From Minisyncoccota bacterium (GTDB taxonomy: Bacteria; Patescibacteriota; Minisyncoccia; Minisyncoccales; CG1-02-41-26), in contig JAQUKS010000001.1 of NCBI GenBank assembly GCA_028718965.1, positions 1-57,213 of the forward strand: 57,213 nt of DNA. The letters run 5' to 3'. The position numbers and the translations under genes were made by a program. The notes under the pieces are model-generated. The model searched no databases and was not told the origin of the DNA. It saw nothing but the letters and a program-made list of their open reading frames with translations. Positions 40,489 to 51,911 of the stretch are shown one piece after another. The stretch's first letter is position 1. Every line of letters starts with the position of its first letter.

Positions 40489-43020
40489 TTATTCAACTGG
40501 ATTATTTACAAATATTTTTTCAGACTCTTTACGATGTTCTTCTTCAGAGATTACGGTATCGTAAAGACCTATTCTTTCGCCCTCATGTTTATTTATTCCA
40601 GTATATGTAATACTAGCATCTTCATATCGTTTGAACTTATACACTGCATCGTTCATTAAAGCACTGCTGAAAACCCCGAGACTCACAAGCATCTCAAAAT
40701 CTTTTTGAGTTAGGCCAGTAACTTTTTTGAATAACCCAGGCTCCAATTTAGTAATTACATCTCTCAGCGTTCTTTCCCGATAATCTGTAAGATACATAAA
40801 TACAGGAATGCGGGTGGCAAATTTAATTAACTTCTCCTGCACTTGTTTACGAAGATTTTTATATTCTTTTTCCTCTTCAGTAAGTTCTTTTTGCTTTTTC
40901 TTGGCCAATTTTTTGTCATTTGCCTCTTTTCTTATTTTCTCAACAGATTCGGATTTGTTGATAATAGTCTCAATATCCTGATTCAAATTTCTAAAACCCT
41001 CGATGCTCATAAGAGCATCCATCGCCGCCTTATTATCCATCAATCGCTTGAGCGTATTGTTGTCTACATTAACTAGCAAAGCGCTTTCCCAACGACGAGC
41101 AAGTAATGTGGCGGTGGTGCCGCTCATTGCCATATCCAAAATTCCTGCTGCGTCAATCTGCTTCATAGCGCTGCCGTCATAGGCAAGAACCGGAAGGAAG
41201 CTTATAAAATCCGCCACTTTAGCCTCTGGGTTGGATTCATTTACATTTAACCGACAGCTATATTCAGCAATCTGTCTTAACGCGCGATTCGGCGCAAAGT
41301 CAAAAACATAACACTCGTTTTTAATAATTTCTTCTTTATTGGGTGATTTGTCGTCCGGATTTTTAATGCTCCACGGCGACTGCACACGAAAAGCGGCTTG
41401 AAAATATGTCTCTGGCGTAGAACAACTGCGAAGCATAAAAATGCCCGTCCACGGCTTTACCGTTACGCCAACCAAAAGTTTTCCGCAGGTTAAGGTAATA
41501 GTTTTAGACGCCAACGGATCATCCATAGCTTCTAGGACTGGTGGCAACGCTTTTATCCCTATACCAGCGCCTTGGCCTGCCGCCACGACTATCGTATAAT
41601 CATGATAAAAAGTATTTTGCCTTTTCTTTAGCAAATTACGCATCGCATAACACGATGCAACCGAAGGCAAAAACCACAGCGTATGGTTAAGAACATTTAA
41701 TAGCTCGGCGTGTGAATAAGGCATTGGCGGCTTCTTTGCCCCAAGCTTTAAATTATCAATAGTGGTTTCCGCAAAAGATCCGCGTATCAAATCAAGCCAT
41801 TTTTGCACTTCATCTTCGTATTTAAATTTCGCTTTTTTATCCTTGCCCTCGGCAGCGAAAAATTCGTTTAAATCAAATTCGTTGAATTCTCCTTGTTGAA
41901 CTATGTCAATTATTGAATCAGGAAGCTGATAAGTCATCATCACCATGCGCGGGAGAGGGGCGTAGGGATTAAATTTACCTTTATCGCTCCACGATTCCTT
42001 TGCTCGTTGCTCATCCGAATAAGTCCAGTTGTATATTTGTTCTTCAATAAATTCTCCAGAAGCGATTGCCCTAAAAGGTGTACCGGAAAGATATAAATAC
42101 GCCTGCGTTTTTATGGGCAATATTTTCTCATTAAAGTCTTCTAACCCCTTACCTTCAGCAAACTCTTTTTCTTTTTTCTCTTCCGCCTCAAAAAGTTCTT
42201 TGGCATTTTCGCGCCAAGCACCGTAATGATACTCATCAAACACAACACAATCCCATTTGGTTTTATGAACCCATTCATTTTTTGTTTTTATCCCACCGGT
42301 GCTTTTATTTTTACCCAAATAATCTTGAAATGATCCAAAACAAACAAACGGCTTTTTTTCATCAATGTCTTTATGCCAAAGCGTATTTTGAGCAGCAGAA
42401 ACAAACTGCCAACCCCGAAAATCAATATGTTCTTTTAAGTCATCGTCCCACGCGCTCTCAACCGCCGGCTTAAAAGTCATTACCAAAATCTTTGTCCATC
42501 CCATCTTTTTCGCCAATTGATATGTCGCGAATGTTTTGCCAAAGCGCATTTTTGCGTTCCATAAAAAATGTGGGGTTTTGTCGGGATTTTCTTTTCTATG
42601 ACTATCAAAATAATCTGCTGTTTTTTCTACCGCCGCTTTCTGCTCTGGACGCATTTTGAAATTCAGTCCGCGCGTCTCAATGTTAAATTTTCGTTCCCTG
42701 ATATCATCAATCGCAGACCTAACATCTTTTAAGCCACACTTAAACCACTCGCCGTCTTTTCTTTTGATACTTTTCTTCTTCAGATGTTGGTGAACCTCGT
42801 GATCGGTAAAAGTAGTGCCGTCGTTCCTAATGGCATCTTCAATAAGCACTATCCGGTATGATATTTGCGCTGTCCCGAGTTGTTCCTTGACCCTCTCTTC
42901 CGCACTACGCACCGTATAGCCAACTTTCAACAAACCTTTATGTGAAACAACGCCTATAAGTTCATAGGCGTATATTGTCGGTTTAATATCCGGTTTTTGT
43001 GGGAAAAAATCTTTACTCAT
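40489..43020 (-). CDS. GIY-YIG-like (T5orf172-type) N-terminal domain fused to an SF2 DEAD/DEAH-type helicase (restriction Res-like)
   Basis: The N-terminus IYAYEL...LLKVGYT...EWFKC fits the T5orf172/GIY-YIG-like pattern. Walker A AKMRFGKT and VVFDEYHYG (DExH) follow. The start lies 2 nt after the methyltransferase stop. Confidence 0.65.
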   Translation of the reverse strand: MSKDFFPQKPDIKPTIYAYELIGVVSHKGLLKVGYTVRSAEERVKEQLGTAQISYRIVLIEDAIRNDGTTFTDHEVHQHLKKKSIKRKDGEWFKCGLKDVRSAIDDIRERKFNIETRGLNFKMRPEQKAAVEKTADYFDSHRKENPDKTPHFLWNAKMRFGKTFATYQLAKKMGWTKILVMTFKPAVESAWDDDLKEHIDFRGWQFVSAAQNTLWHKDIDEKKPFVCFGSFQDYLGKNKSTGGIKTKNEWVHKTKWDCVVFDEYHYGAWRENAKELFEAEEKKEKEFAEGKGLEDFNEKILPIKTQAYLYLSGTPFRAIASGEFIEEQIYNWTYSDEQRAKESWSDKGKFNPYAPLPRMVMMTYQLPDSIIDIVQQGEFNEFDLNEFFAAEGKDKKAKFKYEDEVQKWLDLIRGSFAETTIDNLKLGAKKPPMPYSHAELLNVLNHTLWFLPSVASCYAMRNLLKKRQNTFYHDYTIVVAAGQGAGIGIKALPPVLEAMDDPLASKTITLTCGKLLVGVTVKPWTGIFMLRSCSTPETYFQAAFRVQSPWSIKNPDDKSPNKEEIIKNECYVFDFAPNRALRQIAEYSCRLNVNESNPEAKVADFISFLPVLAYDGSAMKQIDAAGILDMAMSGTTATLLARRWESALLVNVDNNTLKRLMDNKAAMDALMSIEGFRNLNQDIETIINKSESVEKIRKEANDKKLAKKKQKELTEEEKEYKNLRKQVQEKLIKFATRIPVFMYLTDYRERTLRDVITKLEPGLFKKVTGLTQKDFEMLVSLGVFSSALMNDAVYKFKRYEDASITYTGINKHEGERIGLYDTVISEEEHRKESEKIFVNNPVE

Positions 43021-43021
43021 A

Positions 43022-44539
43022 TTAATTCATTGGGCGGATCATAGATTCAATAAAAGCAATTTCTTTTTTAGTTAATTTATATTTTTTATATAATTTCTCA
43101 TCAGTCCATGACTCAGAAAAATTTTGAATTGGAACAAAGGTGTAAACGCCCCTAGAAGCATGTTGTGTATTTTTCCTTAGCATGACTAAAAACCTAAAAA
43201 ATCTAGTCCTCATGTAAGAAATAACATTTTCGGCAATTTTTTTAGATTCAAAAGGTCCAATTACAAGATAAGTTTCGGTGCAACATGTTCCAGGCTCACC
43301 ATAAAATGGTTTGTTGATGATTTGATGGGGGAAATCCTCTCCAGCACCATATGCCATTGATATATAAACCTTGTGCTCGTCAATCCAGTCTAAGTTTTGA
43401 GTAATATCTCTATTTTTTACAAAACCACAGCCCTTATTGGTATAAATTTTGAAAGAATCTTTTGTTTCTCTTTTTTCACCCTCAAAAAAGGTTCTCAAAC
43501 CGAACGGCTTCTGATTACTTACAAAATTACTAAATGATTGTTCTTTTTTTAGTAAAACTTTCTTTAATATCTCTATTGATTCATTAAATCTCACAAAGAT
43601 ATCGCTTCCTTTTTCTATCAATGTACGCCTTAATATAGAAACGTTATTTCCACGAACAGTCTTAACTTCACAATCGCCTAAGTGATCCCTTTCCCACAAA
43701 AAATAGCTCACACCGCCTTTTATCTCTACACCGGGGAAACATTCCCCAGATACAGGATAGTCAACTAAATGGCTTATCCTGCCATCTTGTAACATTTCCT
43801 GTCGGTACACGTCTAGGCCTCTTCCGCCAGAAAACCACCGAGACGGCGTAATCATTACAAGAAAACGCGGCTGCATTTTCCTTGCCTGTTGCACAAATAA
43901 ATGATACACGGGGATAGCGCCGCCTCTCTGTCTCGCTCCATCTTTTGAATCGCCCTGATCACTTAATTGATAAGGCGGGTTGCCTATAATTACATCAAAT
44001 TTCATATTATTTATTACATTAGGTTTTTTATTATGTATAAATTTGTATGCGTGAGTCTCGAGCCCCTCCTCACGCTGATACTCTGACTGACTAGCTCCAC
44101 AAAAAGAGCACCTTCCATTTTTCCAATCGTGATCTGTTTTCTCAAAGAAAATATTACCTTGATCGTTGTTGAAAGAACCAGATACAGAGTATTTTCCATT
44201 GGCAATTTTTGAGCAGTACAAACTACGCCTAGAAAGTAGCGAAGTCAATTCCGTGATTCCAATCCCAAAAATTTGTTTGCTGTAAATATGGTCAATCCTT
44301 TTTTGAAGATCCGGAATTTCATTCTTCAATCCTTCCAGCAATCTTTTGGCAATTTCTCGCAGGAATACTCCTGACTTACAAACCGGATCCAAGAAAGTCG
44401 CAGTTTTGTCTTTCCAAATCTCTTTTGGTAATAAATCTAAAATTTCGTTCGCTAATTTTGGCGGAGTAAAAACTTCATCACTACTTAAATTAGCAAGACA
44501 AGAAAGTACATCAGGGTTGTAATTATTTTGCATCTTCAT
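43022..44539 (-). CDS. N6-adenine DNA methyltransferase (gamma class, Eco57I-family-like) with a C-terminal recognition domain
   Basis: EVFTPPKLANEIL, motif I FLDPVCKSGVFL and motif IV IIGNPPYQ. The start was chosen at ATG 44539 or 44533, overlapping the upstream stop; the longest ORF (to 44656) is an overlap artefact. Confidence 0.8.
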   Translation of the reverse strand: MKMQNNYNPDVLSCLANLSSDEVFTPPKLANEILDLLPKEIWKDKTATFLDPVCKSGVFLREIAKRLLEGLKNEIPDLQKRIDHIYSKQIFGIGITELTSLLSRRSLYCSKIANGKYSVSGSFNNDQGNIFFEKTDHDWKNGRCSFCGASQSEYQREEGLETHAYKFIHNKKPNVINNMKFDVIIGNPPYQLSDQGDSKDGARQRGGAIPVYHLFVQQARKMQPRFLVMITPSRWFSGGRGLDVYRQEMLQDGRISHLVDYPVSGECFPGVEIKGGVSYFLWERDHLGDCEVKTVRGNNVSILRRTLIEKGSDIFVRFNESIEILKKVLLKKEQSFSNFVSNQKPFGLRTFFEGEKRETKDSFKIYTNKGCGFVKNRDITQNLDWIDEHKVYISMAYGAGEDFPHQIINKPFYGEPGTCCTETYLVIGPFESKKIAENVISYMRTRFFRFLVMLRKNTQHASRGVYTFVPIQNFSESWTDEKLYKKYKLTKKEIAFIESMIRPMN

Positions 44540-45182
44540 AATTGAGTGATAGATAGTGGACCAGTGGAAATTCTTTGACTGGCATAGGAGAAAAGACCGC
44601 TTCGCCCGTATCAGCGACTTCTCGCAGGGAAAACAAAGTCGGGCGTTTTGGATCAAAATCCGCCAGTTCGGCGTATTGAAAATCTCTTCGTTTTACCATT
44701 CCGCCATCTACTAAAGACCATTCAGAAAATATTATGTATTCTTTGCCATTAGCTTTTTTTAAAGTTAGCGCGTCTCCTTGCAAAATGTTTCGCTTCAGCA
44801 CAAAATAAATACTCTTTTTAAACTCATCTTTACACTTGTCTTTATATAATTTGGTATACATTTCATTGAAAATATTATAAAGACGCTCAATGCACGCTTC
44901 AATATTATCCTGCAATAATTCAACTCCATATATACTGCTTACCGCCTGAAACGTCATTCGCTCAAATTCTGTTTGAATAGACCCGTATTTTTTCTTTACC
45001 ACCTCAAGCTTTCTTTCAAGTATTGGAGCTAAAAAATTTCCGTTGCCGCACGCAGGTTCTAAAAAACGGGATTCAATTCTTTCTGTCTCGTTTTTGACAA
45101 GATTAAGCATGGCGCTCACCTCTTTTTCTTGCGTGAATACTTCGCCATGATCCTTAACTCTCTGTTTAGATTTTATTTGCAT
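44523..45182 (-). CDS. Methyltransferase-like protein with SAM-binding motifs but no NPPY-type catalytic motif
   Basis: GEVFTQEKEV, motif I LEPACGNGNFL, IYGVELL and NILQGDAL are present, but no (N/D)PP(Y/F/W) follows. The start was chosen at ATG 45182; the longest ORF starts at TTG 45245. Confidence 0.6.
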   Translation of the reverse strand: MQIKSKQRVKDHGEVFTQEKEVSAMLNLVKNETERIESRFLEPACGNGNFLAPILERKLEVVKKKYGSIQTEFERMTFQAVSSIYGVELLQDNIEACIERLYNIFNEMYTKLYKDKCKDEFKKSIYFVLKRNILQGDALTLKKANGKEYIIFSEWSLVDGGMVKRRDFQYAELADFDPKRPTLFSLREVADTGEAVFSPMPVKEFPLVHYLSLNYEDAK

Positions 45183-45283
45183 AAATAATCTTATTCCTCT
45201 TTTAAGATACCCCCATTTTTTAATAATTTCAATAACTAAAAACAAGCTGTTTTAAGCTTGCTTCTCGGGTGTTCTCCTTTTCC

Positions 45284-45796
45284 CTACCTGAGTCTTTTCT
45301 GTATTTCTTCTGGTGTAGCAAAGGGTATGTTATATGACTGCAAAAAACCTATAAATGTTGTCTGGCTGTCAGTGTCCGAAACTGCAATGATTACATAATT
45401 CCTCCTGTTTTGGCAATGAATTGCCAAAGTTATTGCAGATTTCTGAATGCCTGTTAAAGTGTTTGATTCTATAATATCACGTGGCGCATTAGACATATTA
45501 ACCCCGTAAGTATTCTGCGGGAAAGAACTATCATTAAAAAGCGCCAAATCGCCTAAAACTTTTTTTTCAAAATCTACGAAAGACCTACTGCTAAATGTTG
45601 CAAAGTTGAAAGACGATGAAGCATCAGCCAAAATAATCTCAGCCGTTAATTCCCCAACTGTTAATGGATAGCTGGCAACATTTATCGCGACCCAAACAGT
45701 TTGCGACAAGCCAGAAGTTGACAAATTTGCCATATCTGAAGCTGTATCTGAAGTTGTAATAATAAATTTTTGATCCATAGGCATATTATAACCCAT
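45284..45796 (-). CDS. Hypothetical protein (170 aa)
   Basis: ATG ORF, the last gene of the protease cassette. No recognisable motif. Confidence 0.5.
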   Translation of the reverse strand: MGYNMPMDQKFIITTSDTASDMANLSTSGLSQTVWVAINVASYPLTVGELTAEIILADASSSFNFATFSSRSFVDFEKKVLGDLALFNDSSFPQNTYGVNMSNAPRDIIESNTLTGIQKSAITLAIHCQNRRNYVIIAVSDTDSQTTFIGFLQSYNIPFATPEEIQKRLR

Positions 45797-45901
45797 AGAA
45801 ATTTTATGTCAAATTTTTGCTTTCACTTCCCACCAAAAAGCCACATCCTTATCATAATCAACTATTTTTTCTTTTCCTATCCAACTTAATAATGGCATAA
45901 A

Positions 45902-46561
45902 TTAGTTATTTGGCGCATCAGGCAAGTTGAGATACTGTTGATTTTTGATTGTTGCTTCTGGCCTAATTTTATTAATATCAATATTTAAAAAATATAAAAG
46001 CATACCGACAATAATTAATACCGCTAGTATTATATTTGGAATTAAAAATGATCTCCTAGTAAATTTTACTTTTTCTACTGGAGCGAAAAACAAATGAATC
46101 AAAACAGCAAAAATAGCTACCGAACAAGTAAGCGCAACAATTAACAATATCGCAGACAAAAAAGAATTTGCAGACTTTATGATATTTACATCTACTAGGA
46201 CTAAAGCGATTATTGCGGAAAATAAACCCACTATTTCTGGAATTCTATTTTTTTGATTCTCTATGTCGTTTTTTAAAGTTTCTATTTTTCCAGCCTGTGA
46301 GCTGAAATTGTCAGCCTGTTTTTTTATTTTGTCCTCTTGGTTCTTAAACTTTATATTATGCTCTTCAACATCTTTCTTAATTGTTCTGAATTGATTAGTT
46401 AGTTTATTAGCCTCATTGTTCAGGTTAATAATAGCTTCTCTTATGGGATGGAGATCATCAGAGGTGATTTCTCTCGGCTCTTCAGAAGTAGTCGGTTCTG
46501 TGTCGCTAGATCTAAACCCTTTAGGCAGATCTTTATTTGTTTTATCTCCCAGTGTAGACAT
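45902..46561 (-). CDS. Coiled-coil protein with a C-terminal multi-TM region
   Basis: N-terminal heptad-rich segment (NNEANKLTNQFRTIKKDVEEHNIKFKNQEDKIKKQ...) followed by 3-4 hydrophobic helices. Confidence 0.55.
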   Translation of the reverse strand: MSTLGDKTNKDLPKGFRSSDTEPTTSEEPREITSDDLHPIREAIINLNNEANKLTNQFRTIKKDVEEHNIKFKNQEDKIKKQADNFSSQAGKIETLKNDIENQKNRIPEIVGLFSAIIALVLVDVNIIKSANSFLSAILLIVALTCSVAIFAVLIHLFFAPVEKVKFTRRSFLIPNIILAVLIIVGMLLYFLNIDINKIRPEATIKNQQYLNLPDAPNN

Positions 46562-46567
46562 ATAATT

Positions 46568-47215
46568 TTACAATAATCCATGAATAAAACTGAAAAAGTC
46601 TTTTATATTGTCCACCTTGCTCTTTATTTCGGCTATCACATCACTTAATTGTTCAACCCTTTTTTCTTCAACCTGATAAATATTATTTACGTCAAAATTT
46701 ATCTTTAATGATTTTGCTTCTTGCCCATGGCTATATTCCATCACGATATTATAATTAAATTTATTATCGGCCGATTTAAAATTAAAATTTCTAATCTCTT
46801 TCTTTGTTTTTTTAAAGTTAAAGATTTTATCAACCATTTCCGCTTCTTTTATATCTATCCCTTCTATATCATATGTTAATGCGATAATTGCTCCACAAAA
46901 TTTTATATTGTTAGAAATTGAGCTACTTAGTATCGTCTTTCGTGCCTTGTCGAGAGATAAGATAACATTTATAATATCTGCGCTTTTTTCTAAAATATAA
47001 TTTTTCTCCTGAAATTGTATTCTATTTAAAGAAACAAATACCTCCGCAGGCCTCTTTTCATTCAACTTCTTTATTTGTGGGTCCAATAATCCTAAAGTAA
47101 GCTGCTTATCTTTCAACACCTGATTCTCATCTAAGGCATTTTGCAGTTTGTTAATAGAATCGTCAAATTCAACTGCGGCTAGGACTGAATCGTATTTTTG
47201 AATATCATTACTCAT
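46568..47215 (-). CDS. Hypothetical protein (about 215 aa)
   Basis: ORF 6 nt upstream of the TM protein. The ATG at 47215 is preferred over the GTG at 47230. No recognisable motif. Confidence 0.5.
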   Translation of the reverse strand: MSNDIQKYDSVLAAVEFDDSINKLQNALDENQVLKDKQLTLGLLDPQIKKLNEKRPAEVFVSLNRIQFQEKNYILEKSADIINVILSLDKARKTILSSSISNNIKFCGAIIALTYDIEGIDIKEAEMVDKIFNFKKTKKEIRNFNFKSADNKFNYNIVMEYSHGQEAKSLKINFDVNNIYQVEEKRVEQLSDVIAEIKSKVDNIKDFFSFIHGLL

Positions 47216-47244
47216 AATATTAATAAGCACTTATAATAACTTAT

Positions 47245-48279
47245 CTACTTCCATCCCTGGGCGATGGGCCTAAAAGCTACTTGCTCTTGGGGTATTTGGA
47301 CGGGGCCTTGGGGGGTTTGCTGGGTTATATTTACCTGTTGCTTTTTGAAATCAAGCGTGAGTTCAAAATAATTGGCAATTTCCGCGCTTTCAATAAAGGC
47401 GATTTTGTAGCCCTTTCTGTTTTGCATAGAATTTTGGCCAAGCTCGTTTTCGGGGTTCCACAAAACGCCAAGCTCCATTTCTCGGGCGTATTCCTCGTAT
47501 AAGTCGGTCATCACTTTGGACAACTCGTCGCTTGCTGAAACAACTGTTTTTAGGCCCAAATCCTCTTTGGCTTCTTTCCGGCCGATGAAATATTGGTGCG
47601 AGTAAAGTTTTTCGGTGAAGTAATCAACAATTTTTTCAATTTCCTCCTCTTTCATCGGCGATTTGTGGCTTTTGAGCAGGCGTTTGGCTAAAATTCTGAT
47701 TAGGTTATGGGTGCGGTTGACATTGCCCAAAGCCAAGGGGTGAATTTGCGGGTTGGCTTCAACGAATTTGCTGAAAATTCTAGCTAACTCTGCATCGTCT
47801 TTTATACCGAATTTGTTTTTGGCCAAGTCAAAATAAGCCATAACGTCTTCAACGGAAATCGGAATTTTGTTTTGGGGATTATGCGGGTCTTGGGGATTAA
47901 AAACATTGGCAGTCGAGGGGTCAATCGGTGAAAGCTCGGAAAGATCGCTCATTACGATTTCATCGGCTCCCAATGAAATCATCGTGGCCGATGAGTGGGC
48001 TTTATACGGGATTAAAACCGAAAACTTGTCGCAGTATTCGCGAATCATTGAAACCAACCGCCAAGGCACCATCGTGTCTCCGCCCGCCGAATGTAAAAGT
48101 AAATCAATATTCTCGGTTTTACCAATGGCTCGCAGGTGCTTACTGATTATCGGCACGATATCCATGGCGATTCTGGCTGATGGGGTGCCTGGGGCGCCTT
48201 GCCGATCGCTGGTTAGATATGTAATAACTCGCGAATTTCGCAATTTTTCAATTTGTTGAATAAGTTGTTTTTTATCCAT
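47245..48279 (-). CDS. ClpP/crotonase-fold serine protease (SDH / S49-like family)
   Basis: LLLHSAGGD (oxyanion region) and YKAHSSATMISLGADEIVM (nucleophile Ser region) fit the serine dehydrogenase proteinase-type pattern. Confidence 0.6.
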   Translation of the reverse strand: MDKKQLIQQIEKLRNSRVITYLTSDRQGAPGTPSARIAMDIVPIISKHLRAIGKTENIDLLLHSAGGDTMVPWRLVSMIREYCDKFSVLIPYKAHSSATMISLGADEIVMSDLSELSPIDPSTANVFNPQDPHNPQNKIPISVEDVMAYFDLAKNKFGIKDDAELARIFSKFVEANPQIHPLALGNVNRTHNLIRILAKRLLKSHKSPMKEEEIEKIVDYFTEKLYSHQYFIGRKEAKEDLGLKTVVSASDELSKVMTDLYEEYAREMELGVLWNPENELGQNSMQNRKGYKIAFIESAEIANYFELTLDFKKQQVNITQQTPQGPVQIPQEQVAFRPIAQGWK

Positions 48280-48683: not shown

Positions 48684-48688
48684 ATGGG

Positions 48689-48711
48689 TAAGTGATTAGT
48701 GAGTGGTGGTT
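48689..48711. repeat. G/T-rich heptad-like repeat, copy A (partner at 49528-49550)
   Basis: TAAGTGATTAGTGAGTGGTGGTT versus TAAGTGGTTAGTGATTGGTGGTT is 21/23 identical. It lies in the 5' region of the MazG-like gene. Confidence 0.6.
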
Positions 48712-48738
48712 GAGTGAGGAGGGCTGTGCATACAAGGG

Positions 48739-48820
48739 TTGACAAGTGGGTTTAAGGGTGTATAATTAAGACACTAAACGTGGGGCGGATTCTATACGAG
48801 TCCGTCTCATTTATTTTATT
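48739..48820 (+). ncRNA. Candidate very short plus-strand transcript (consensus promoter plus terminator)
   Basis: TTGACA-16 nt-TATAAT (48739-48766). The 9-bp hairpin at 48784-48806 contains two G.U pairs that would be C.A mismatches on the minus strand. A T-rich tail follows. Confidence 0.35.
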
Positions 48821-50131: not shown

Positions 50132-50422
50132 CTACTTTGTAGCAAAGGTTTTGCCGGTAGTTTGTTCCAGTATCTCCAAGGTGGCCTGCACTGAAGGGTT
50201 GCCGGTGTTTTTTAAAATCATTTTTCCTCCGTAGGCATTCAGCAGGGGCGTTAGAAATTCGTCTCCCCAAGACGGGGAAAAAGTCAAAACGCCGTCAAAA
50301 TCTACTTCGATTATTTCATCTTCTTGAACGTCTTGCAAAAGGGGCCGCAGAGCCGAAAACGCTTCCCTGCCTGTTTGGCGGGAAATCAATGTTGTGCCGA
50401 ATTTTTTTAGTTCAATAATCAT
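50132..50422 (-). CDS. STAS-like small protein (DUF4325-type)
   Basis: 96 aa; ISRQTGREAF...IIEVDFDGVLTFSPSWGDEFL fits the pattern. The start lies 2 nt after the upstream stop. Confidence 0.55.
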   Translation of the reverse strand: MIIELKKFGTTLISRQTGREAFSALRPLLQDVQEDEIIEVDFDGVLTFSPSWGDEFLTPLLNAYGGKMILKNTGNPSVQATLEILEQTTGKTFATK

Positions 50423-50423
50423 A

Positions 50424-51149
50424 TTAATAAGTAATCAGGGCAAGGCAGCCAGGGATATTTTCTTTTACTTTTTCAATATCCAAGACAGCCGTGCCGCCGT
50501 TTAATGTTAATTTCGCGTCGCCTGTTTGAAAGATCAAATTTATCGGATTCTTCGCGATGACATTCCTTACATATTTCAATCCATTGCCCCTGGCCTCCGG
50601 TTTTCTGCCGGAAATCATCTCGGTAAACGCGACTTTCAGCGCCTCTTCGTGATTCTCAAGCTCGGGCTTCACTCTTTTCAGGGTTTTTAATATCCCCAAT
50701 CCCCTGTCCGCCAAAACAATTTGTTTTTTATTCAGATCATACCCGAAAAAGATGCCGGGGGTATCCGGCCATTGGCCCAAATTATGATCATACGAATTAT
50801 TGCCTATTTCACCGGCAATGGACACAAGCAAAGAAAACATGGCCTTGGCATCTTTGTTTTCCATCATCAAGCTGCCCATTTTTGTAACGCGCGCCTGGAA
50901 TATTCCGCTATTTTGGCAATAGAACTGATCAGGGAATTCTTTGTGTGAAAGCGCCCAGTCCTTGGCAAGCTTGAATAAATTACTCAAGAAAGTTTCTATG
51001 TCCCCGACATCTTTTTTGAATATAACAAAATTACGGCCCATTTTTTGAGCCTTGATATCGCCTTTTTTAATTCTGTTAAAAACAGCTATCCGGCTGACTC
51101 CCAACAACTCGGCTAATTCTTTTGTGGTATAAAATTCTTTTAAATTCAT
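50424..51149 (-). CDS. Excisionase/MerR-type HTH fused to a GHKL (RsbW/SpoIIAB-like) ATPase fold
   Basis: HTH YTTKELAELLGVSRIAVFNRIKKGDI, N-box-like EIGNNSYDH, G1 DRGLGI and G2-like ARGNGL. Confidence 0.6.
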   Translation of the reverse strand: MNLKEFYTTKELAELLGVSRIAVFNRIKKGDIKAQKMGRNFVIFKKDVGDIETFLSNLFKLAKDWALSHKEFPDQFYCQNSGIFQARVTKMGSLMMENKDAKAMFSLLVSIAGEIGNNSYDHNLGQWPDTPGIFFGYDLNKKQIVLADRGLGILKTLKRVKPELENHEEALKVAFTEMISGRKPEARGNGLKYVRNVIAKNPINLIFQTGDAKLTLNGGTAVLDIEKVKENIPGCLALITY

Positions 51150-51401: not shown

Positions 51402-51911
51402 TTATATTCTATATTCAAGCTTTTTTCGTAAGTTATCCATAAATACAATTTTTTCTTTGGCCTCTTTTTTCAACAGCGTTGAGCAAGTCTTAGTGTAAGG
51501 GCTCATCACAAACCGTAATTTATTGTTTCCATAAAGGTGTTTGACAAGCGAATAAAAATCACCATCACTAGAAACGATTATTGCCTGATTATAGCTTAAA
51601 AAATCAATCATTGCCTATAAGACAAGATCGGCATCTATGTTGCCTTTTACATTCCCATCGCTATCTGGAATAGTTGGTTTGAAAACCAAGACATAACCAG
51701 CTTTTTGCAAATCAGAATAAAGCGGTTGATTGCCAGGCATATAACCAACAAAGTAGTATGCCGTGGCTATCGAATATTTTTCAGCGAGATATTTCCTGAA
51801 ACGCCAATAATCCAACTTCCAGCCCAAACTCTGGATACCGAGATTTAAGTTTTGGCCGTCTATAAAAGCGTAGTTATTCTCCATATTCCCATAATGTTTC
51901 CTTGAATTCAA
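51402..51911 (-). pseudogene. NYN-domain gene split by an in-frame TAG
   Basis: The two ORFs are in the same frame: ...GNIDADLVL-TAG(51615-51617)-A-MIDFLSYNQAIIVSSDGDF... Together they reconstitute one LabA-like NYN domain. Confidence 0.7.

Follow-up and report, generated by a model that had tools for sequence, protein, structure and literature searches.

We analyzed a stretch of DNA of 57,213 bp, the whole of contig JAQUKS010000001.1 from a Candidatus Pacebacteria metagenome-assembled genome (MAG), which we call the window, and found that a serine protease of the serine dehydrogenase (SDH) type, encoded by the gene g1, is followed there by one of many interchangeable sets of small genes. We propose that a single conserved protease gene, with exchangeable partners, forms the core of a mosaic region that functions in a toxin-like or abortive-infection-like manner, a reading that we hold with about as much confidence as doubt. 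We are considerably surer of the anatomy, namely, a conserved protease, a hypervariable slot that begins at its stop codon, and one type of cassette that is tied to the protease. In the window, the genes g1, g2, and g3 belong together and are probably conflict-related, while the next gene, g4, is a separate unit. The four genes are the following.

Positions 47245 to 48279, minus strand: g1, 344 residues, SDH-type serine protease with a ClpP/SppA fold, the conserved anchor and core gene.
Positions 46568 to 47230, minus strand: g2, 220 residues from a GTG start or 215 residues from the ATG at 47215 (NCBI call), soluble.
Positions 45902 to 46561, minus strand: g3, 219 residues, N-terminal coiled coil and three predicted transmembrane (TM) helices.
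Positions 45284 to 45796, minus strand: g4, 170 residues (166 in the NCBI call), soluble.

As described in an earlier note made from the sequence alone, these four open reading frames (ORFs) are co-directional and closely spaced, with gaps of 14 or 29 nt between g1 and g2, 6 nt between g2 and g3, and 105 nt between g3 and g4. The AT richness ascribed to the whole segment was found for g2, g3, and g4 (29.3, 32.0, and 37.0% GC, respectively) but not for g1, which at 44.7% GC resembles the window (44.3%); the low GC content sets in only past the g1 stop codon. Pfam and PADLOC matches also bore out the two flanking blocks, with MazG-like, NYN, and CYTH genes upstream and methyltransferase and helicase genes downstream. 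Neither g2 nor g4 matched any family in Pfam, PHROGs, NCBIfam, or PADLOC, so that both remained as unassignable as first stated, and a PDB sequence search gave no match. We saw no meaningful repeats bracketing cassettes in the window.

The assignment of g1 as a protease held. Indeed, the protein matched the Pfam family SDH_protease (PF01972) with 64.3 bits against a cutoff of 31.3 (E value of 1.2e-17) as well as phrog_11747 (E value of 7e-42), and both motifs that had been quoted for it, HSAGGD and AHSSATMISLGADEIV, are present in its translation. Among 118 family representatives with 33 to 78% identity, no substitution occurs at G66, G67, S96, or H228, and D120 is kept in at least 90%. Because the Ser-Asp-His order characteristic of the SDH family (S96, D120, H228) is kept, together with the GG oxyanion motif, g1 is probably active, and we regard it as a putatively intact, soluble SDH-type protease of the ClpP/SppA fold. 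No signal peptide and no TM segment were found in it. An AlphaFold2 model built on a deep alignment of these 118 representatives reached a pLDDT of 96.9 and a pTM of 0.93 and shows a ClpP-like core to which a helical domain and, at the C terminus, a long beta-hairpin are added; it superseded an earlier model from a shallow alignment (at least 80% identity), which had a pLDDT of 69 and gave weak Foldseek matches. Compared with the PDB by Foldseek, the final model matched SppA and ClpP at E values of 5e-5 to 4e-4 with a probability of 1.0 and TM scores of 0.5 to 0.65 (target), while in a viral library it matched giant-virus "serine dehydrogenase proteinases" at an E value of 5e-11.

The known enzymes closest to g1 are thus the SDH-type proteinases (PF01972; NF047768), with which it shares the Pfam match, the order of the catalytic residues, the GG motif, and the closest predicted structures. 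However, g1 stays below the cutoff of the NCBIfam equivalog NF047768 (75.8 versus 250 bits), with only residues 3 to 125 aligned, and differs from it by about 200 additional C-terminal residues, which form the helical domain and the beta-hairpin, end in QGWK, and are conserved throughout the clade. This C-terminal QGWK is constant, and no partner-specific C-terminal tails were found. ClpP (S14) and SppA (S49), which are self-compartmentalizing serine proteases, have the same core fold, but the likeness is one of fold only: g1 gave no CLP_protease or Peptidase_S49 match in Pfam at an E value of 0.1 or lower, it has no ATPase partner gene, and its Ser-Asp-His order differs from the Ser-His-Asp order of ClpP and from the Ser-Lys dyad of SppA.

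A scan of genomes, with one genome per species, returned 80 protease loci, in which the protease is 74 to 93% identical to g1 (loci are cited below by L numbers). Most hosts are Patescibacteria, but the clade, with members in at least 80 genomes, extends to at least five other phyla and also occurs in MAGs of Omnitrophota, Nitrospirota, Smithella/Syntrophaceae, Bacteroidota, and Gammaproteobacteria. Its borders are sharp. The best 120 database matches of g1 are all at least 79% identical to it, and among 1.84 billion representatives clustered at 50% identity, the clade corresponds to one full-length representative (78%), while the other full-length representatives listed are all at most 54% identical; in total, 3735 of these representatives score an E value of 0.001 or lower. 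The protease is therefore no orphan but has thousands of relatives, some 4600 homologues, and many other downstream partners. A scan of IMG/VR with the exact protease found no close relative.

The conservation is equally sharply bounded at the DNA level. Between the window and the other loci, similarity extends from about 13 nt ahead of the g1 start, i.e., from the ribosome-binding site, to the stop codon and no further. At syntenic sites (L079/L082, L025/L032, L066/L071, and L007/L008), homology likewise stops at the protease stop codon and returns 1 to 2.5 kb further on with conserved genes such as dnaK or a mod gene. In several Parcubacteria (L066, L071, L076/L099, L043, and L027), the protease and its cassette lie between grpE and dnaK of an hrcA-grpE-dnaK operon, and the genes between the protease and dnaK are entirely different from species to species. 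The GC content at third codon positions (GC3) of the protease gene follows the local background and the composition of the host. Four MAGs carry two copies of the protease; in small (1-Mb) genomes of the candidate phyla radiation (CPR), such paired copies are 79 to 93% identical and each is followed by a different cassette.

What follows the protease is highly variable. Across the 80 loci, more than 25 unrelated families occupy the first downstream position (+1), and 341 of 718 neighboring proteins are singletons. The downstream proteins of the loci closest to the window show no similarity to g2, g3, or g4, and even proteases that are 97 to 98% identical precede unrelated genes (L025/L032 and L079/L080); nearest-neighbor proteases had a downstream family in common in only 8 of 54 cases. 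GC3 was lower than that of the protease for the +1 gene in 91% of the loci (median difference, -0.096), for the +2 gene in 81%, and for the +3 gene in 69%, while genes at positions -1 to -5 did not differ from the protease. In four loci (L006, L013, L066, and L077), a second copy of the last 47 to 77 nt of the protease gene, 88 to 93% identical, lies 0.15 to 1.6 kb downstream, with one or two cassette genes enclosed between it and the protease gene, and in L042 two protease genes are found two genes apart. These duplicated 3' ends and paired proteases suggest that units bearing the protease have recombined with one another.

Restriction-modification (R-M) genes of types I, II, and III abound in the neighborhoods, as do DUF262, Fic, PIN, and RhuM genes. 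The commonest recognizable family directly after the protease is DUF6941 (PF22091, about 130 residues), with 9 of 150 downstream proteins (L007, L008, L021, L023, L031, L032, L052, L070, and L033). In at least five loci, this soluble protein is followed by a member of family c5, which combines a coiled coil with one TM helix; the layout is the same as that of g2-g3, the proteins are unrelated, and type III mod-res genes often come directly after. Searched against plasmids, neither g4 nor DUF6941 gave a match. Judged from these comparisons, g2-g3 is one of many alternative cassettes in the slot.

One of these cassettes is firmly linked to the protease. Among 5.8 billion proteins, g2 has a single cluster of homologues (P0122, 64% identical), and a second relative (54%) was found on a metagenome contig (L098). 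The contigs with g2 homologues have the order protease, g2-like gene, and g3-like gene (the protease is 83% identical in L089), and in L090 the g3 homologue is followed by the intact start of a type III mod gene. The g3 protein has weak coiled-coil-type matches over residues 25 to 120 approximately and three hydrophobic helices, predicted to be TM, within residues 105 to 197, and an alignment of its family shows a conserved TM core. Of the shape first attributed to g3, a long coiled coil ending in three to four TM helices, the coiled-coil-type N-terminal half therefore stands, with the number of helices set at three.

We then searched metagenomes for g3 relatives with two peptide patterns taken from the TM region of a four-sequence alignment, a search that is blind to genomic context, and obtained 27 loci. 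Among the 19 with enough upstream DNA, 18 carry the protease (53 to 83% identical) 0.7 to 0.9 kb upstream, in agreement with the proposed link between the protease and a coiled-coil/TM protein. The g3 relative is encoded two genes downstream of the protease, and the intervening gene always codes for 209 to 236 residues. Seventeen of these middle genes belong to a family that we call X_A and three are g2-like; by hhalign, the profiles of the two families show no similarity (probability of 0.2%). g2 is thus not a fixed member of the cassette, as had been supposed; at least three unrelated proteins can occupy the middle position, g2 being one of them. Across ten loci, the divergence of the protease correlated with that of the middle gene (Spearman coefficient, 0.77) and with that of g3 (0.75; Mantel P value of about 0.001). 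Since this correlation extends to middle genes with as little as 25% identity, the three genes have been kept together for a long time. Taken together, the recurring architecture, the co-divergence, and the near confinement of the g3 family to this position indicate that g1-g2-g3 is a true three-gene unit.

More distant relatives of the protease, 24 to 47% identical, are present on 77 viral contigs of IMG/VR, and many of them lie 0.3 to 3 kb from the ends of proviral contigs of 35 to 56 kb. Of the 50 IMG/VR relatives examined, about half precede a coupled ORF of 60 to 95 residues on the same strand, and one family of such small ORFs, v1, is common to eight viral loci. A relative with 35% identity occurs in 47 of 5426 complete genomes of Escherichia coli, where, as cargo of lambdoid prophages, it lies in reverse orientation between the genes for the Q antiterminator and the holin and is annotated by PGAP under the name of NF047768; an unannotated ORF of 59 residues overlaps its stop codon (L086:8960-9150, plasmid-prophage CP081794). 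Examples of the relative are WP_086714419 of strain SCEC020001 and WP_044064371 of plasmid CP081794. Neither the E. coli relative nor that of Gordonia matched a PADLOC model. We also observed unannotated ORFs of about 59 to 80 residues, starting at or across the end of the protease gene, in L129, L141, L152, L154, and L161 to L163. One small-ORF family found on eight viral contigs has a conserved motif of the type T-x-DA-x-x-I/V-Y/F-R-E/D-T.

The pairing of a conserved protease with a co-translated partner that varies points to a role of the partner as a labile substrate or a regulator. ClpP-fold proteases that lack an ATPase partner act only on unfolded or loosely folded polypeptides. In the mechanism that we envisage, the protease would be the constant catalytic core, and the proteins encoded just downstream would be its exchangeable partners, with g2 as a labile substrate, regulator, or sensor and g3 as a membrane effector. 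Two modes of action could be imagined. Continuous proteolysis of g3, or of its activator or regulator, might keep g3 harmless; alternatively, infection or stress might upset the balance, and cleavage of the cytoplasmic coiled-coil domain of g3 would then unleash it. The prophage version would be simpler, with the protease and one coupled protein of 60 to 95 residues. Such a toxin-antitoxin (TA) or abortive-infection-like mechanism is a tentative proposal that we consider possible but doubtful. A slightly better case, though still short of even, can be made for a widespread and as yet undescribed modular class of conflict systems, in which a fixed, ATPase-independent SDH-type protease would be combined with exchangeable downstream partners swapped by recombination at its stop codon. 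With the same reserve, these partners may be single proteins of 60 to 95 residues in prophages and, at the other end of the range, a soluble protein combined with a membrane effector in CPR.

The best-surviving alternative is that the slot is a hotspot and nothing else, the protease being a stand-alone stress or proteostasis enzyme, or a single-gene exclusion function, that happens to act as a homology arm, with g2, g3, and g4 as unrelated cargo. We consider this unlikely, though well worth weighing, and a number of observations that speak for it or otherwise weigh against exchangeable partners have to be set out. Homology ends exactly at the protease stop codon, and in contrast to the host-like protease, the AT-rich cargo is poorly adapted to its host; the foreign composition of g2-g3 relative to g1 in the window could reflect a recent recombinational import of the cassette no less than a functional role. 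Adjacency driven by spreading, with the protease as homology arm, would mimic a functional link. The slot also houses modules that are independent of the protease (R-M systems, PIN-type pairs, RhuM, and DUF262) and even housekeeping genes: in some loci the protease stands alone, in an Omnitrophota MAG it precedes gatC, accA, and hisG, and in Smithella it is followed by GNAT and isochorismatase genes. Over the whole set, the protease and the cassette do not co-vary. Proteins with TM segments are not enriched at positions +1 and +2 (28% versus 14 to 31% elsewhere), and the coupling of the next ORF to the protease is barely above that of the control (86% versus 75%). As near-identical proteases are found beside unrelated cassettes, any recognition could only be generic, and no common N- or C-terminal motif, such as a degron or a cleavage site, was seen by eye in the cassette proteins; the contact between protease and partner is something that we infer. 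Furthermore, the protease lies within the hrcA-grpE-dnaK operon in several Parcubacteria, and distant relatives (27 to 32% identical) adjoin other proteases in stress-type loci on plasmids of Thermus and Paracoccus.

Against a mere hotspot stands that members of the g3 and X families occur almost exclusively behind the protease and co-diverge with it, the X family down to 25% identity. In addition, 1-Mb genomes retain two diverged copies of the protease, each with its own cassette, and the prophage relatives likewise carry a coupled and variable small ORF. No integrase was among the 25 commonest Pfam families of the 150 downstream proteins, a full integrase search not having been run, and no att-type machinery came to notice, although none was specifically searched for.

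Another alternative is that g2-g3 are accessory genes of a type III R-M operon that was lost in the window, rather than partners of the protease. Two features between g3 and g4 bear on this question and on the position of g4.

Positions 45813 to 45904, minus strand: 5'-terminal relic of a type III mod gene, with an ATG at 45898, 4 nt after g3; it encodes MPLLSWIGKEKIVDYDKDVAF and then runs out of register.
Positions 45785 to 45812, minus strand: consensus promoter of the sigma-70 type, TTGACA-16 nt-TATAAT, with 12 of 12 matches, at the end of the relic and directly before g4.

The 21 residues of MPLLSWIGKEKIVDYDKDVAF are those with which the type III Mod proteins behind g3- or c5-type genes elsewhere begin. 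By blastn, the relic matched the 5' ends of mod genes in L007, L008, L021, L029, and L077 (78 to 86% identity over 60 to 93 nt), and L028 holds a similar relic. From this similarity, the relic is best read as the recombination scar of a lost or replaced mod-res pair. In keeping with an accessory role in a type III operon, mod starts at most about 30 nt after the stop codon of the g3- or c5-type gene in L007, L021, L090, L102, L103/L104, L106, and L112, and the window retains the first 21 mod codons just past g3. However, mod is downstream in only about 8 of 22 independent g3 loci, the others having DUF262, RadC, or unrelated genes, while 18 of the 19 testable loci have the protease, and the g1-g2-g3 unit survives in the window after the loss of mod-res. 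We therefore regard this explanation as improbable.

Even less probable, and at odds with the comparison of loci, is the proposal of the earlier note that the four genes form one defense system, with licensing of the TM protein by the protease and with g4 as an additional component. The genes are co-directional and close, and relatives of g4 occupy position +1 or +2 behind the protease in L030 and L051. However, the four families are nowhere else found together, the mod relic and the perfect consensus promoter separate g3 from g4, and the loci homologous to g2-g3 run on into mod and not into g4. The -10 box of the promoter ends 1 to 7 nt ahead of the ATGs at 45784 and 45778, and because of this proximity g4 is probably a separate, perhaps leaderless, transcription unit. 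The g4 family instead travels with R-M genes, which were found downstream of all three readable relatives and directly downstream of two: the homologue P0124 (65% identical) lies directly upstream of type III mod-res, the relative in L051 (+2 of the protease) directly upstream of a C5 methylase gene and R.HinP1I, and the relative in L030 (+1 of the protease) four genes ahead of type I hsdR/hsdM. The g4 gene of the window itself lies ahead of genes for a split type IIG/ISP-like methyltransferase and a helicase-nuclease. With four cases, the position of this family upstream of R-M systems of differing types is a lead and not a rule. We regard g4 as a separate unit beside the R-M block and outside g1-g3. 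A match of g4 to Levi_coat was discarded as subthreshold (17 bits against a cutoff of 25). The block itself comprises three ORFs, assigned by Pfam and PADLOC.

Positions 44523 to 45245, minus strand: ORF of 240 residues resembling a methyltransferase N terminus.
Positions 43022 to 44656, minus strand: Eco57I-family methyltransferase, 544 residues.
Positions 40489 to 43020, minus strand: protein with T5orf172 and ResIII helicase domains, 843 residues.

The proteins of 843 and 544 residues cover consecutive parts (151 to 801 and 862 to 1359) of PDLC03626, a model of 1359 residues for a type IIG restriction endonuclease-methyltransferase, and the pair at 40489 to 44656 looks like a split form of a single-polypeptide R-M enzyme. 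The ORF of 240 residues may be a fragment, since it is N-terminal only and overlaps the long ORF by 134 nt.

The remaining alternative, a prophage remnant in which g1 would be a prohead maturation protease among degraded head genes, can practically be set aside: weak local matches over about 70 residues point to it (phrog_1684, E value of 7e-8; NF045542, 34.6 bits against a cutoff of 120), but the best matches of g1 are SDH-type families, its viral structure matches are SDH proteinases and not prohead proteases, no capsid, scaffold, portal, or terminase was among the neighbor families identified in the 80 loci, the exact clade was not found in IMG/VR, and E. coli prophages hold the relative alongside a separate HK97 prohead protease. 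This grouping with prohead proteases and capsid or scaffold neighbors was the check that had been set beforehand, and it came out on the side of the SDH proteinases.

The statement that no named defense system is known to have this architecture was upheld as far as PADLOC goes: with PADLOC-DB v2.0, g1, g2, and g4 had no meaningful match, and g3 gave weak coiled-coil-type matches only. We found nothing in the literature on SDH proteases, PF01972, or DUF6941 in the context of defense or mobile elements, and as far as the literature and the PADLOC models were searched, the behavior of the protease and the slot described here is new. Several known systems are nevertheless similar in one respect or another. 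Much as we envisage for g1-g3, bacterial gasdermins, which are protease-activated pore formers, combine a protease gene with that of a membrane-acting effector in defense-rich neighborhoods. However, g2, g3, and g4 gave no gasdermin match with the sequence models of Pfam and PADLOC, g3 is predicted to be an integral membrane protein with three TM helices while gasdermin is a soluble pre-pore protein, and g1, unlike the gasdermin-linked proteases, has a ClpP fold and no sensor domains. NfeD/STOPP and stomatin are another such pair, in which a ClpP-fold protease is encoded beside a coiled-coil membrane protein that it cleaves; in contrast, g1-g3 gave no NfeD or Band_7/SPFH match, and g1 is soluble.

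The protease IetS is subtilisin-like, a type different from that of g1, and IetAS further differs from g1-g3 by its AAA ATPase, which the latter lack, and PADLOC gave no match to it. IetAS, a serine-protease toxin with an ATPase antitoxin that acts as a TA and anti-phage system, nevertheless shows that in a small TA or defense module the dangerous part can be a serine protease (PMC13069673).

Finally, the slot is reminiscent of vgrG/Rhs islands and of hotspots flanked by core genes, with a conserved gene, swapped AT-rich cassettes, and displaced 3'-end fragments. Its anchor, however, is a protease and not a secretion or phage gene, there is no homology, and the likeness is an evolutionary one. 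Overall, g1-g3 share no components with the gasdermin, IetAS, NfeD-stomatin, or vgrG/Rhs systems.

Three further regions of the window are worth recording. At 50132 to 51149 on the minus strand, a gene pair codes for a protein of 241 residues, whose only matched part is an excisionase/MerR-type helix-turn-helix (NCBIfam) and whose C-terminal region is kinase/ATPase-like by eye, and for a protein of 96 residues that is STAS-like by eye and has no family match. The pair is also found three genes downstream of the protease in L001/L009 (46% and 50% identical); it seems to be drawn from the gene pool of these islands, and a regulatory role of the partner-switching type is possible. At 51402 to 51911, also on the minus strand, there are adjacent ORFs of 98 and 69 residues, the first of which resembles the protease-adjacent NYN-domain proteins of the window and of L001 (52 to 53% identical); this NYN gene appears to be split by a frameshift and is therefore probably a pseudogene. 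In the gap between the NYN and MazG-like genes (48684 to 48815), a perfect TTGACA-16-TATAAT promoter on the plus strand (48739 to 48766), antisense to the operon, is followed after 14 nt by a 13-bp stem-loop with a T-run (48780 to 48810). Together, these elements could give a very short antisense RNA or form a bidirectional terminator.

The combination of protein conservation across phyla, host-like codon composition, and a razor-sharp recombination boundary is unusual. It also provides a handle for searches, as the sequence right after the protease gene could yield hundreds of unknown cassette families, and the E. coli prophage relatives make the idea of exchangeable partners directly testable. 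Should the slot be a hotspot and nothing else, the protease gene would still be of use as a marker for the variable islands of CPR bacteria. Most of the Patescibacteria (CPR) are uncultured, their genomes are tiny, and R-M is believed to provide the larger part of their defense. If the modular reading is true, a fixed protease with exchangeable partners would represent a new layer of conflict biology in these bacteria.

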